From contig OZ024759.1 of NCBI GenBank assembly GCA_964016885.1, positions 31,248,001-31,312,000 of the forward strand: a DNA stretch of 64,000 nucleotides, given 5' to 3'. Numbering within the stretch: position 1 is the first letter of the stretch; each line of letters opens with the position of its first letter. Positions 11,171 to 58,543 of this stretch are shown one piece after another. The stretch is from Eledone cirrhosa (lineage: Eukaryota). The position numbers were made by a program, and so were the translations under genes. The notes beneath the pieces were generated by a model, which saw nothing but the letters and a program-made list of their open reading frames with translations, was not told where the DNA came from and did no database searches.

Positions 11171-11226
11171 TATCTGATGAAAGCACACCATAATTTGCCT
11201 TGGTTGCCCTTGAAATATGTATAATG
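11171..11226 (+). ncRNA. Hammerhead ribozyme motif, family C
   Basis: tat CTGATGA aagcacacca...tggttgccctt GAA ATATGTAT A atg, then aaataaa. Confidence 0.65.
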
Positions 11227-12075
11227 AAATAAATATGCTTTTATAAATATAGTTTCCCTTTATTAATATATTGTGAATATATTGTATATAATATATATTT
11301 CTCTCTGAAAAGCCATGAAGTCAGAAAAGATAGTTTAATACCATTCTTTATCTCACTCCCTTTTCATACTAACCATCTGACCATCTACTGTTAAGTGGGC
11401 GGAGGTGTGGGGTAGTAAGAAGACAATATATTACTATATTCAGAAGATACAAGAATGGTTGGCATCGGCTGTCAGAATTTGAAAATAATCATTTAAAACT
11501 TTGAAAGTTGCTAGATGATTAAATGTAACATGGTGAGTTATAGTCGGCGAAGATACACGCGCAAAACACAATGGAATATACGTGGAACATAGAACAAGAG
11601 AATTACAGAAGTGCTCGTGGCTGATTAGATAAGAAGTTTGACGTCACAGCTTTAATCCTTTCTCTGGTGGGATGTGAGCAGGTGTGTTATGCCATAAACT
11701 CTGGTCGATCTTTCACTCGTAAGTGAAATCTTAGTATACGGCGGAAAACTGTGAGGATGGACGCCCTGCCGGATGGATTTAGTGAGACATTAAATGTAAG
11801 TTATGGAGCGTTTAGATAACACTTGGCTGTGGAATGCTAGGGCACCTGCACACTATTACCTTGGTCGAATCACTGGAATATTTCTCAGAGAAACTGACGT
11901 AGATCTGTTCCTTGAATTAAGTTATATAACAGACACACTCATTGATTTGGGATCGATTGAGCGAAAGGGTACACTTGCATACTTATCCCTTGGTCGAACA
12001 ACTGGAATAATCCGCGTCGAAATTGACGAAGGTCCATTCCATATATTATAGTACGTTAAAGACACAGTCTATAAT

Positions 12076-12290
12076 GGGGCGATGGTTCGGTAGAGCGTCA
12101 GGTAACATGCTTCGCGGCATAGAATATACGTCCCTTTACGTTCTGAGTTTCAATCCCACCAAGGTCAAGCGTTGCCTTTCATCCTTAGGAGGGTCGATGA
12201 AATAAAGTACCAGTAATACACTGGAGTCAATTTAATCGACTTTCCTCCTCCCCCAAAGTGTTTTGCCTTGTGCCTAAATCAGAGACAATT
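12076..12290 (+). mobile_element. tRNA-derived SINE (OK-like), diverged
   Basis: Homologous to 15333-15550. Confidence 0.75.
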
Positions 12291-12764
12291 CGAGACGCTG
12301 TCGTGTCAGACGCTGTCGCTTTACAATCAATTATGTTGGATGGGTTAAGCCAATAATCGAACCTTATGGAGCGTTAAAGGAGCACTTGTTTGTGGAATGC
12401 TCAGTCACCTGCACTGCTAAATTATTGGTCGATTAACTGGAACACTCTTCGTCGAAACCAACGTCGGCCCATTCTATATGTTTCATTGCGTGATAGACAC
12501 AGTAACAATACTCGATAGAGTGAGTAGCTTGGAGATCAGGTAGAGCCGCTACTTCTCCGAATTGTGGGATCACAGCTTCGATATATATGTGTATATATGT
12601 GTGTATATATATATATATATATACATATATATATATATATATATATATATATATATATATATATATATATATATATATATATATATATATATATATATAT
12701 ATATATATAAGGATTAAAATACTGGAGCGTGTTGTATTGGCCGATAGTACTTCTTGTGGTTTTG

Positions 12765-12812
12765 ATTGCCCTGATGAGTCCTTAATAGGACGAAACATTG
12801 TTGGCTAATAAA
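12765..12812 (+). ncRNA. Minimal type-I hammerhead ribozyme
   Basis: attgcc CTGATGA gtcct-taat-aggac GAA AC-att-GT T ggc(t)aat then AATAAA; perfect 5-bp stem II; island between (TA)n tracts. Confidence 0.85.
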
Positions 12813-12889
12813 GACTTTTGATGTATTGAAGGCTTCTTTGTTTTATTTTCATATATATATATATATATATATATATATATATATATATA

Positions 12890-13085
12890 TAGGAACGAGT
12901 AGGACCCCGACGGCTGAGCTCAAGCCGTTTCGACGGCTAATTCTGAGTCCAGAATTAGCCGTCGAAATGGCTTGAGCTCAGCCGTCGGGGTCCTACTCGT
13001 TCCTATTACCCACTCTACTACCCTAAGTATTGAGTACTTTGGTGCGTTATGGTCCACCTGGATCCTTACCACATTTCCTTCGTTA
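12890..13085. mobile_element. Family B palindromic element
   Basis: Arms with copy-specific aacgagtagg/cctactcgtt; (TA)n flanks. Confidence 0.85.
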
Positions 13086-13740
13086 TATATATATATATAT
13101 ATATATATATATATATATATATATATATATATATATATATATATATATATATATACATAGGCTCAGCGCACAGTCTTTCTTCACTTTAAAAATAATCTTC
13201 GCGCACAGGCATTACACGATAGAATTAATTAATAATTATTAATAATGGTATATCGTGCAATGGCTATACTCGATAATGAGTGGGCAGCCATAATGTATGT
13301 ATAAGTGTCTATATGTATGTATATATCGGAAATAAATCAAAATAAAAACGTATTGATTCTTTTATTCTGTTAAGAGTTGAATTGAAGTAAGATGTTAAAA
13401 TCCAATTCCGGAGCACACTTTTGCTTACGCAAGAATATTACAGAAAGCCATATTAATTATAAAATGTAATATTTATGACAAGTTACAAAAGCAATCTGAA
13501 AAAGAAATGTCTGACATTAATTGCTATGCTAAAATTACATATATACATATTTCGTTTTTGTATTGGATTTGCAAGATACTTTGTTTGAAATTGTGCGTTA
13601 AAACAGATATTGTTATACTTTGGGAGAGTCATGTTGACAATAAAACACACACGCACCTCTTGAGTTTTCACTTCGATTTATTCTGACACAGCTCGCAAGA
13701 ATATGATGGTTTAAGACCGGACAAAGGAGAGATACAAAAT

Positions 13741-55157: not shown

Positions 55158-55171
55158 GTTGCTACGGTAAC
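55158..55171. promoter_or_regulatory. RFX X-box-like motif
   Basis: GTTGCTACGGTAAC. Confidence 0.35.
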
Positions 55172-55264
55172 ATTGCTACTCTACACTTCATTAGTTTTAT
55201 TTGTTTGATCTAATAAAAGTGTATTTGATAGTATATCTGGAGTTACGGGAGTATATATATATGT

Positions 55265-55665
55265 GAAGGCGCGTGTATAAGTAGTTATAGTGTTCGGCTT
55301 ACAATCCTGAGGTTGTGAGTTCGATTTTCTGACCGGGCTTTGTGTTGTGTTCTTAAGCAAGACTCTGATTCTTTATTTCACGTTGTTCCAGTCCCCCTTC
55401 ACACAGCTGTCACTGTTGACGTCATTGGTGTCACCCTGTATCGGCTTTGCCTTTCCCTTGGACAACATATTTATGTCAGGTCACTCTCGAGTGCTCCTGG
55501 TAGCGCGTAACCCAGTACAACCTGTCGCATGGTCGGGTTGTCGGCGACTAAACCGGCAGCCCCACCAAGTTAACTTAGTTAGGACGGTGATTTTGGACAC
55601 CCTGCAGGACAAAAAACAAAACCTGACAAAGGGCGGAAGAACTCATAAGAGTCAACGGCCATCTA
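55265..55665 (+). mobile_element. CORE-like SINE whose 3' part matches the 5' end of family D
   Basis: tRNA head (gagttcgatt), CORE-like gtgttgtgttcttaagcaagac; 55490-55665 matches the reverse complement of 20415-20590. Confidence 0.65.
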
Positions 55666-57244
55666 AAAAAAAAAAAGAGTTAGTAGTTCCAGCTGCAGGC
55701 ATCGAAAGACTGGTGTAGTGGTTCTGAGAACAATGCGGCTTTGCAGATGATCAATGTAAATTGACAATGGAAAGGCGCTCCCGCTCGAGTTAGAAGAGAA
55801 CTATTGACCTTCAGGAGAAGCAGCGACCCCTGGTTGTATTCAGCAACCGAAACAAATATGAAGTACACCAAATCCAATGTTCCTAGGAGCGGCCCTGGTT
55901 CTTCTTATTTGCGAGTGTAAACTCGGCCAGATTAGATTAGATTAGATGGACGACATACATACTGTATATATACTGTACAAAGTATATATATAATATATAT
56001 ACTGTACAAACTATATATAATATATATATACTGTAGAAAGTGTATATATAATATATATACAGAACGTATGAGTTGAGATGTCACTGGTGCGAACCTGTAT
56101 CGGCTTTGCCTTTCCCTTGAACTACATACATACTGTATGTATACTGTACAGTTGAGCAATGCACTTAATTTCACCTTGTATCCTTGAGCAAGACACATTA
56201 TTTTACTTTGTGTCAGTACAGTCCACATTGATTCCGCCTTAAAATCACGTTAAGATTACACGTTTATGGAAAATTCAATAACTTACACGTTAATTCATTA
56301 GTCAGACATTCAGTTGATCGAACGACTGTGAAAGTCCATCGTCGATACAGATGAAACATCAACCCCCATTCTTCCAATTTAACAAATCCTAGTTTATCTT
56401 TCTTGCACTTTTAATAGTTGATACATAAAACTGTATCAACTATTAATTAAATTCTCTTTCCGAATCCTCCACCGTCAGCTTCTCCGTCATTATCAATCAA
56501 TAACATTCAACGGATATGAGCTCGCTCTATTAATTTTCGATTCGATATATGGTGCTCTGTTAGGGAAATATATCCTATTGGATCGAATACCGTCTGTTAA
56601 TCTATTGATTTGCTTTGATTTCATATTTGGTCATATAAAATGGACAAAGTGTGAAGTAGCGTGTAACTCTTTATTAAATCCTCATTGAAAAGAGATTGAT
56701 GAACATATTCCCAACACCGTATATCACCGTATAACTTCCTCTTTCCTTTATAATATATGTGCGTGTGTGTGTGTATATGTATGTGTGTGTGTCTGTGTGT
56801 GTGTGGGGGGGGGCTGTGTGAGTGTGTGTGTGTGTTTGCATATATATATACATACATATATATACATATATACATATATACATATATATGTATGTATATA
56901 TGTATGTATATATACATATATATATATATACATATATATGTATATATATATATATATACATATATATATATATATATATATATACATATATATGTATGTA
57001 TATATATATATGTGTATCTACATATATACATACACATATATATATATACATATATATACATACATATATATATATATATATACATATATATACATACATA
57101 TATATACATATATATACATACATATATATACATACACACTCACACACACACACACATATATATATATATATATATATATATATGCATACAAACATACAGG
57201 CATACACACACATATATGTACGTATGCCTGTCAGAGTTGAAAAT

Positions 57245-57657
57245 AATGGTTTCTGATTTTGAAACAAAGCCAACAATTGTGGGAAAGAGGAAAGTCGATC
57301 AAATCGACCCCAGTGCGTCACTGGTACTTTATTTTATCGACCATGTAAGGATGAAAGACAAAGCTAACCTCGGCGGTATTTGAACTCAGAACGGCAAGGG
57401 CCGTAACTCTATCCTGCAAAGCATGGCGTCCGACGCTCTTGCCGATACTGTCCATCTACCTCATACCGAATATATTGTCTTTACTTTAGGCACAAGGCCA
57501 GCAATAACCCAGTGCATTACTGGTACTTTATTTTATCGACCCCGTATAAGGATGAAAGGCAAAGTAAACCTCGTCGGTATTTGAACTCAGAATGGCAAGG
57601 GCCGTAACTCTATGCGTCAAAGCATGGCGTCCGACCCTCTATCGATACTGCCAATCC
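57245..57657 (-). mobile_element. Two tandem OK-like SINEs
   Basis: Homology to the 15333 element. Confidence 0.85.
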
Positions 57658-58492
57658 ATATCGAATATATTAATGGTAGAAAAATATGATTAATTCTTGA
57701 AATGGTGAAACAATTTAAGAAACACAATGCAAATAATCTTACGTTACAATAAATTTTTTATAATTTAGTTGACAAGAGACGCGAGAATTAAATGAGACTA
57801 CCTTTAGGCTGTATACAACACAGACATCACTAAATATAACCCTAGGCGTGTCTGTCTATACTCTCATAGTTTATCGATTCTAGAAATTACGATACTCGGT
57901 TTAAAATATATAATATGTTATATGTATATATGTTGTATGATATTAGGTTTATGTGTGTAAGTTATTTATCATATTCATATATGAAAATCGTTGTCTATAA
58001 TTTGGCTTTTTGTTTCATTTTGATTCTGACATTCGCAGAATGCTGTGTATATATAAATGTATGTATGTATATATGTGTGTGTATGAATATATGTATTAGT
58101 ATATGTGTACATATATATGAATACACATACATACACACACACACACACATATATATATATATATATATATATATATATATATAGAGAGAGAGAGAGAGAG
58201 AGAGAGAGAGAGAGAGAGAGAGAGAGAGAGAGAGGGGGGGGGGTAGTTCCACAACAGTTAATTCACCATTTCCGAGAACAATTGTTTCCCCTTCATCGCC
58301 TTCATCAATCGGATCATTAGCTCGTTATCAATTTTATATATATATATAAGCAAAAGGGATATTTAATTTGTTGGTAATTCAACAAATATAAAATGTTTAT
58401 AACTGATTCGAAGCACTCGACACGCTTTCTGGAGTATAATATTCAATGATATTAAATAAACGGAAACTATATTTATAAAACCATATTTATTC

Positions 58493-58543
58493 TATTATAT
58501 ATATTTCAAGGGTACCAACACTTTGGTACGCTCTCATCAGATA
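58493..58543 (-). ncRNA. Family C hammerhead motif
   Basis: tat CTGATGA gagc-gtaccaa/agtg/ttggtac-cctt GAA ATATATAT A ata gAATAAA. Confidence 0.8.

Follow-up and report, generated by a model that had tools for sequence, protein, structure and literature searches.

Minimal type I hammerhead ribozymes with a short stem III are known from metazoan Penelope-like elements (Cervera and de la Pena, 2014, PMC4209133; review PMC6765202). The published consensus consists of a U-rich stretch, CUGANGA-H, helix II, GAAA-N-palindrome-N-U-H and an AU-rich stretch, and weak cutting has been reported for these ribozymes (PMC4209133). In the Penelope hammerhead of D. virilis, stem III is a palindromic (AU)3 and helix II is bulged; the D. 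willistoni variant has an 8-nt palindrome, an AUA cut triplet and an A-U closing pair (PMC4209133). Penelope-like elements are described as having arms that are inverted and 5'-truncated, tails on one side only, palindromes at the 5' end and a bias for (TA)n (PMC8557442, PMC3846280). In vitro, AT-rich DNA is cleaved and an AC-rich stem-loop provides two start sites; hammerhead cleavage was not required for insertion there (PMC11167929). The role of the ribozymes in these elements is stated as unclear (PMC8557442).

The window analyzed here comprises 64,000 nt of Eledone cirrhosa (contig OZ024759.1, positions 31,248,001 to 31,312,000). It very probably contains a type I hammerhead with an 8-nt self-complementary stem III, located in a terminal repeat of ~300 nt that belongs to a high-copy, likely Penelope-like retrotransposon lying in (TA)n runs. 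The hammerhead is predicted to cut only as paired copies. It adds one more family to a class whose massive and widespread presence in animal genomes has already been reported.

Ribozyme copies and their carrier element

The core CTGA(T/C)GA ... GAAA is present in type I hammerhead order at all six coordinates listed in a first-pass annotation, with C3 at 11174 (+), 32997 (-), 46356 (+), 52182 (-), 52305 (+) and 58540 (-). The AUA cut site and stem I are intact at five of the six. A core-plus-stem-III pattern matched five times in the window and never in 100 dinucleotide shuffles; a stricter full-fold descriptor found eight window sites and none in 60 block shuffles. A model from five copies recovers the same six sites, by construction, and no other below E 0.26. 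The annotation was right about the six cores, but not about their independence. The sites 52130 and 52302 (99.4% identity over 159 nt, 111/111 over the ribozyme segment) belong to a single insertion with head-to-head inverted arms, one site in each, so that six sites represent five insertions.

Hammerhead copy 1 (11164..11233, +) carries stem III ATATGTAT at 11215-11222, with a predicted cut after 11223; its upper stem II is paired only in a shifted register. It belongs to insertion I1 (11111..11284), in which a 34-nt piece of the long 3' end (-, 11111-11144) lies head to head with the + ribozyme arm, flanked by (AT)n on the left and an interrupted (TA)n on the right. Copy 2 (32943..33007, -) is broken by a ~8-nt deletion spanning stem III as well as the 3' strand of stem I. 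It reads ATATAAAT-A at stem III and the cut site, at variance with the annotated reading, which applies to the other five sites. Its insertion I2 (32912..33112) combines this - arm with an inverted + arm without ribozyme (33021-33110); (TAGA)n adjoins the right end and another repeat family the left end. Copy 3 (46346..46414, +; stem III ATATGTAT at 46396-46403, predicted cut after 46404) lies in I3 (46271..46452, +), composed of a 5' fold-back hairpin, the ribozyme and the short 3' end, with (TA)n on both sides. Fragment I4 (47167..47288, +) starts at stem III/cut site in a short TA run and is without core. Copy 4 (52123..52192, -; stem III ATATATAT at 52134-52141, predicted cut after 52133) and the identical copy 5 (52295..52364, +; stem III at 52346-52353, predicted cut after 52354) form the inverted repeat I5 (51991..52404), with the long 3' end left, the short one right and (TA)n on both sides. 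The near-identity of its arms marks I5 as recent. Copy 6 (58486..58550, -; stem III ATATATAT at 58497-58504, predicted cut after 58496) has the most stable stem II. It is part of the most complete unit, I6 (58352..58630, -), which comprises a 5' hairpin, the ribozyme and an AC-rich hairpin near the long 3' end, with (TA)n at most 3 nt away on both sides. In I7 (62183..62294), also lying between (TA)n runs and without core, ~72 nt of the long 3' end (-) adjoin a + arm beginning at GAAA/stem III. The pieces at about 11111-11144, 33021-33110, 47167-47288 and 62183-62294, overlooked by the annotation, belong to the same family and are ribozyme-less.

The carrier likely represents a Penelope-like element: its arms are inverted head to head, hairpins occur at its 5' ends, its 3' end comes in two alternative forms and (TA)n lies on its flanks. 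Inverted arms occur in four of seven insertions (I1, I2, I5, I7), and strand-switch joints were found in reads as well. The 5' hairpins of I3, I5 and I6 have fold-back sequences that differ among the three insertions. The short and the long 3' end are about 85-95 nt apart; the end piece of I1 stands alone. The long end has an AC-rich hairpin close by in 4/4 copies. A (TA)4 or longer run is found within 5 nt of 7/11 homology-defined 3' ends, set by eye, compared with a background of 3.3%, and (TA)n occurs in the loose ends of 8,072 reads and seven contigs. No start of an open reading frame was seen downstream of the ribozyme. Among 145 of the 196 non-repetitive window frames, Pfam matched neither a reverse transcriptase nor a GIY-YIG domain, all copies being short end-pieces. 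A putative parent with both activities would nick AT-rich DNA. Its cDNA would begin at either of two internal sites near the 3' part of the RNA, yielding the short and the long end, and would often fold back into inverted arms. The copies in the window, isolated or inverted relics, would mostly be silent.

Several other assignments were discarded. An upstream frame with NKHQLHL, which resembles a GIY-YIG C-terminal motif, is located at a fold-back junction and does not recur in the other copies. The pairs 46356/52305 and 52182/58540 are only 85-89% alike and enclose no open reading frame, as two repeats of one full element would. A DNA foldback or MITE does not agree with arm lengths and junctions that differ in every insertion. 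Rfam at E up to 10 identified no hammerhead family for 58470-58570 or 46330-46430, nor for the whole window among the best 150 of 307 matches listed; microRNA-like matches in the window are microsatellite artefacts. Pattern scans for further copies found none in metagenome contigs, viral contigs and prokaryote genomes. Exact family motifs are absent from the supplement of PMC8557442, where one 10-mer matched an unrelated record, and from file 2 of PMC4209133.

Stems, palindrome and predicted folding

Stem III is a palindrome of fixed length, 8 nt, with the sequence ATATATAT or ATATGTAT. It had been annotated as an (AT)n microsatellite, but is a constant 8-mer internal to the element, 58 and 142 nt inward from its two ends. 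Reads reveal many copies of the hammerhead-bearing element in the genome. In the 3,027 contigs and 31,376 reads evaluated, from four of 13 sequencing runs, the sole listed change in stem III is A to G, which keeps the pairing, and no indel is listed. Runs X7-X10, with small shares, were left out. Because a few loci likely dominate the RAD-seq run X11, its shares are not copy frequencies. The substitution 52137 A>G (26% of contig depth in run X1) retains eight dimer pairs; the share of ATATGTAT ranges from 26 to 67% by run and strand. Stem III self-pairs with 8/8 positions in four of five lineages and with 6/8 in the deleted copy 32955. This AT-repeat stem is a self-pairing palindrome of the kind already described for such ribozymes. 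Other hammerhead-like motifs in the window use ACGT, ACATTGT, ATGATCAT, ACAATTGT and ACATCATGT as palindrome. The AT repeat may simply be the palindrome on offer in a very AT-rich element.

None of the 40 listed read substitutions (at least 46 in all) affects the 12 core positions, while N7 is variable; none of the eight listed read indels falls inside the ribozyme. Invariant columns amount to 18/19 in core and stem III, 35/41 in the downstream flank and 12/26 in stem/loop II, the fastest-changing part of the ribozyme. As the flank is almost as conserved as the core, core conservation by itself tells little. Stem I has 8/8 pairs in four of five lineages and 4/10 in 32955. At 52130, a G>A change in reads lies opposite U and keeps the stem.

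Stem II forms a hairpin of -4.7 to -9.1 kcal/mol in all five lineages, for 11171 in a shifted register. The stem is in register in four of five lineages, with pairs broken in two of five. The arms 52130/52302 read ataacat/atgatat in register, including an A.A mismatch. This column is mismatched in many copies: 52168 A>G accounts for 48% of the depth in X1, and the sole X6 contig has A opposite. The annotation had described a stem that varies and stays paired, and had taken this covariation as support for selection. The three pairs that it quoted do occur in the sequence; catatt/aatatg is not column-homologous, and 11171 pairs only out of register. Five lineages yield only three compensatory pairs, a number reached by 44/500 and 67/500 shuffles, so covariation is not shown. 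Past selection on the hammerhead fold is plausible, since this fastest-changing part nevertheless retains an in-register hairpin in four of five lineages. An extra base (A, G or U) follows A9, and the closing pair 10.1-11.1 then holds in 5/5 lineages, as A-U in four and as G-C in one. A closing G-C is usual, whereas A-U prevails here; A-U is present in published entries too. In 4% of the X1 depth, A at 11.1 breaks the pair.

The hammerhead is predicted to cut its own RNA only when two copies pair via the palindrome. A monomer would be unable to close a loop on the 8-nt palindrome. In a tandem parent transcript, two hammerheads could swap strands, form an 8-bp stem III and be cut after AUA. According to the energy model, the double hammerhead has a lower energy than two monomers in 9/10 pairings; it is the cofold minimum in 2/10 and not in the other 8/10. 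For copy 46353, the double hammerhead is the minimum, with -23.6 kcal/mol. The same model lets the monomer in 3/4 intact lineages prefer pairing of the stem I 5' strand over the GAAA core.

Alternative readings of motif and element

Unlikely, but the best of the alternatives, is a non-LTR retrozyme, a short non-coding unit spreading as tandem repeats and hammerhead-cut circular RNA, with no fixed place in a coding element. The ~300-nt unit, low GC, type I hammerhead and lack of an open reading frame all fit the published description (PMC7229834). All copies also end within ~85 nt upstream of the core, where read depth drops to zero at 52238. Set against this are 0/7 head-to-tail insertions in the window and same-strand copies at least 5.9 kb apart and 85-89% alike. 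The element ends 58 and 142 nt downstream of the cut site, not at it, and a tandem-like joint occurs in only six reads from two starts. A preprint derives animal retrozymes from Penelope pseudo-LTRs, so that the retrozyme and Penelope readings shade into each other.

It is rather improbable that the stem III helix is also a copy of the (TA)n target of the element. The endonuclease would then nick resident stem III DNA, or cDNA ends would anneal there as at a homing site, and pairing between the stem I 5' strand and GAAA would serve as an off switch pending the arrival of a second copy.

The motif might not be kept for cutting at all. The AT run would then be a promoter of the TATA type or a site for protein binding in the terminal repeat, and hairpin template switching (quasi-palindrome correction) instead of selection would account for the paired stem II changes. 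In line with this, a TATATATA box has been proposed in the pseudo-LTR of a rotifer Penelope element (PMC3846280), and no RNA ends were found at the cut site of an anole Penelope element (PMC11167929). The family readily forms new 5' fold-back hairpins, with different sequences in three insertions; covariation is not significant and the flanks are about as conserved as the core. This explanation is nevertheless very unlikely, given 12/12 core bases, both stems and the cut triplet, all in hammerhead order. The TATA box has the consensus TATAWAWR, which the common ATATGTAT variant spoils, yet RNA pairing is retained through G.U. Unrelated motifs in the window retain the palindrome property with other sequences.

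The annotation had speculated on a link between the AT stem and the (TA)n insertion context. Capture of the stem from the (TA)n target, or its action with the target as a primer-annealing or homing site, is extremely unlikely. In its favor, I4 begins at stem III within a TA run and I7 has an inverted arm beginning at GAAA/stem III; six reads from two starts connect the short end of another copy with stem III, and the terminal repeat of the anole element contains AT-rich DNA that the element itself nicks. Against it, stem III is internal, of fixed length and bordered by conserved element sequence, AT-rich microhomology accounts for I4 and I7, cDNA synthesis by the anole enzyme begins at RNA sites that lack homology to the DNA it cuts (PMC11167929), and other families have non-AT palindromes. 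Of the seven insertions, two have a junction at stem III or GAAA/stem III and five have none there. The element does sit in (TA)n; a link between stem and target is not needed, since (TA)n is a known Penelope-like trait, the stem lies 58-142 nt inside the ends, (AU)3 is published and non-AT palindromes exist elsewhere in the window. Two weak junction hints are all that remain for such a link.

Comparison with known systems

Minimal type I hammerheads of Penelope-like elements are reportedly also the subject of Lunse et al. 2016/17. The ribozymes of the window fit the published minimal-hammerhead consensus. With this class, the Eledone copies of the likely Penelope-like element share the core, the extra base after A9, a long helix II and a palindromic helix III that requires a dimer. 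In both, the flanks are U-rich on the 5' and AU-rich on the 3' side, copies are dispersed and truncated, variability within the genome is high and some opposite-strand pairs lie 100-700 bp apart. In contrast, stem I has eight pairs here and two to six in the listed members, helix II contains an internal C/CC loop and a mostly A-U closing pair, and the stem I 5' strand can alternatively pair with the GAAA core. By fold description, the copies resemble the D. virilis ribozyme in an AU-repeat palindrome as stem III and an interrupted helix II, and the D. willistoni variant in palindrome length, cut triplet and the prevailing closing pair. They differ from the D. virilis ribozyme in (AU)4 instead of (AU)3, an AUA instead of an AUC cut and eight instead of two pairs in helix I. 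The family is of modest use as test material for dimer cleavage and covariation, offering high abundance, divergent subfamilies and a natural A/G variant of stem III. A palindrome and a stem I longer than in most listed members of the class add to this test value.

Animal non-LTR retrozymes (PMC7229834; bioRxiv 10.64898/2026.07.22.740005) are likewise short, non-coding, AT-rich units with a type I hammerhead. They are set apart by the absence of tandem arrays in the window, ends away from the cut site and the inverted architecture found here. Naiads have the (TA)n target in common, but are without canonical hammerheads (PMC3846280, PMC8557442, PMC11167929). The 3'-end extension of about 85-95 nt compares with a published optional tail of 30-40 bp in Penelope-like elements. 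Like endonuclease-bearing Penelope-like elements, the copies have head-to-head inverted arms, a 5'-terminal palindrome, an extension confined to one end, an AC-rich hairpin close to the end and (TA)n flanks.

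Hammerhead motifs and their pairing

The hammerhead motif is real and of an already known kind; the first-pass observation was confirmed in part, and its interpretation found partial support. The CTGA[T/C]GA...GAAA core is present at all six positions proposed by the first-pass annotation (11171, 32955, 46353, 52130, 52302, and 58493), in which the label 'Family C' was coined. A pattern of core plus stem III matched five times in the window and never in 100 shuffles. The six sites are not independent copies, because 52130 and 52302 are the opposing arms of a single inverted insertion and share 99.4% identity over 159 nt. 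Every intact copy combines a stem I of 8 pairs, a hairpin as stem II, an AUA cut triplet, and a palindrome of 8 nt that spans A15.1 through U16.1. The original reading of stem III fits the intact copies, but not copy 32955, which reads ATATAAAT-A, carries a deletion of about 8 nt and no longer has stem I.

Hammerhead-like motifs of other families occur at 19422 on the plus strand and 27277 on the minus strand (both with a palindromic stem III ACGT), at 12771 (plus, ACATTGT), 26955 (plus, ATGATCAT), and 61411 (minus, ACATCATGT). Another hammerhead-like motif at 53802 (plus), with the palindrome ACAATTGT and a loop II of about 80 nt, is contained in a 765-bp inverted repeat (88%) at 53280-54049. 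A left-only extension of this repeat opens with GCAGAGGTTA, an end motif shared with the six-copy family. Further head-to-head inverted repeats are located at 218-785, 4842-5103, 26030-26355, and 52624-52830; the first holds a CTGACGA...GAAA core at 549 (plus) with a stem II of 6 pairs.

As a monomer, the palindromic stem III could not close a loop. For three of the four intact lineages, the most stable predicted fold of a monomer has the GAAA core base-paired with the 5′ strand of stem I (probability 0.36-0.9), which is an inactive fold in the model. Two copies would swap strands into a double hammerhead, calculated to lie below two monomers in energy in nine of ten pairings and to be the cofold minimum in two of ten. 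The modelled energetics fit the dimer model outlined in PMC4209133 and PMC6765202. Cutting would be useful only within tandem transcripts of a parent element. Copies in the window are single or inverted, and an inverted pair would form a long hairpin instead. Weak hammerhead activity (PMC4209133) and insertion in vitro with dispensable cleavage (PMC11167929) have been published.

Stem II had been described as staying paired while its sequence changed. One quoted helix, catatt/aatatg, is out of register with the other two; where the columns are homologous, the sequence is ataacat/atgatat and contains an A.A mismatch. Stem II of 11171 can fold only once its register is shifted. PMC4209133 describes one unpaired base after A9 in Penelope-type hammerheads. 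Under this assumption, a closing pair forms in all five lineages (A-U in four, G-C in one); next come G.U or G-C, a C/CC loop, and a helix of 7 pairs. In each of the two registers, a pair counter found three pairs with changes in both partners, a number reached by 67/500 and 44/500 shuffles. The covariation score was reached by 18/500 and 12/500 shuffles and is at a level that, according to the tool, related sequences without structure often attain. One of the three pairs hinges on the alignment chosen for 11171, and a gap in the alignment masks a true-looking U-A to A-U change in 58493. The A-U to G-C change counts once; it occurs in both 58493 and 32955, which resemble each other more than any other independent pair (86/96). 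Stem/loop II is the variable part of the ribozyme: among the four intact lineages, 12 of 26 columns are invariant, versus 18 of 19 in core and stem III and 35 of 41 in the downstream flank. Past selection is not shown by a covariation that some shuffles match, but selection on the ribozyme fold is itself plausible.

Carrier element and neighboring repeats

The hammerhead-bearing family of about 300 nt has seven insertions in the window. In the orientation of the ribozyme, a 5′ fold-back hairpin comes first; the ribozyme follows after about 55 nt, and behind it lie the short 3′ end, the AC-rich hairpin, and finally the long 3′ end. The fold-back hairpin is found in three insertions with a different sequence in each. 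Four of the seven insertions consist of inverted arms that meet head to head; as a rule, one side carries the long end and the opposite side the short one. A (TA)4-or-longer run lies within 5 nt of 7/11 homology-defined 3′ ends versus 3.3% of non-run positions (binomial 1e-8, with ends set by eye and arms of one insertion non-independent); the remaining ends are 6, 49, 349, and 894 nt from (TA)n. Loose read ends with (TA)n were observed for the short end in 8,072 reads and for the long end in 7 contigs. The host genome is rich in AT and microsatellites and may be octopus-like. Membership in the Penelope-like elements is inferred from anatomy, because a search of 145 of the window's 196 frames revealed neither RT nor GIY-YIG. 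For endonuclease-bearing Penelope-like elements, PMC8557442 and PMC3846280 report inverted arms, tails on one side only, palindromes at the 5′ end, and a bias toward (TA)n. For an anole element in vitro, PMC11167929 reports AT-rich cleavage together with internal starts at two sites of an AC-rich stem-loop. A literature search, with repeat libraries outside its scope, yielded no paper on this particular hammerhead family, which may already be catalogued in such libraries.

A link between the AT stem and the (TA)n insertion context had been suggested. A junction is at or adjoins stem III in two of seven insertions (I4, 47167-47288; I7, 62183-62294), and six reads with two starts join a short end to stem III. 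AT microhomology alone would yield such junctions, and the link is a less likely reading that nothing requires.

Another dispersed repeat (3697-4514, 12892-13083, 17218-17408, 35575-35948, 47783-48203, 58647-58728) often adjoins (TA)n or (TG)n runs; palindromes occur within it, and some of its junctions are inverted. Its copy starting at 58647 directly adjoins insertion I6 (58352-58630). A repeat of about 400 nt is present in four copies of 97-98% identity (19999-20409, 24439-24846, 40772-41080, 63077-63482), each with a short frame resembling a C2H2 zinc finger slightly below the Pfam cut-off. The inverted repeat at 36538-37001 holds a histone 3′ UTR stem-loop match (36658-36702, minus strand) at the Rfam gathering score; no histone frame was noted nearby. 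An open frame at 5272-5838 (plus, 188 aa, without Pfam match) resembles the C terminus of a LINE reverse transcriptase. About 20 near-identical 53-nt units form an array at 48302-49357, and an assembly gap of 200 N spans 47460-47659.

Stem III palindrome

Self-complementarity of stem III is conserved, not the AT repeat as such: other hammerhead-like motifs in the window have non-AT palindromes. The first-pass reading as an AT microsatellite was not confirmed. In copy 52130, stem III is 58 nt from the short and 142 nt from the long 3′ end. Aligning four runs to 51995-52256 yielded 31,376 placed reads, along with 3,027, 11, and 3 placed contigs. Among the 40 substitutions listed of 46, one occurs in stem III, an A to G change giving ATATGTAT, which retains eight pairs via G.U, and none affects the 12 core positions; the ribozyme contains none of the 8 indels listed. 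Two observations count against the fold: in 4% of the depth of one run (X1), the base at 11.1 disrupts the closing pair, and the mismatch at column 52168 often persists. Reads with larger changes may have escaped alignment, so that the read-level conservation arises partly by selection of reads. Comparable stems appear in the supplement of PMC4209133, where the GAAA column, displaced in the extracted text, was placed by the consensus line: Penelope of D. virilis reads GAAA-U-AU-AU-C, an (AU)3 stem III, and D. willistoni has an 8-nt palindrome with an AUA site.
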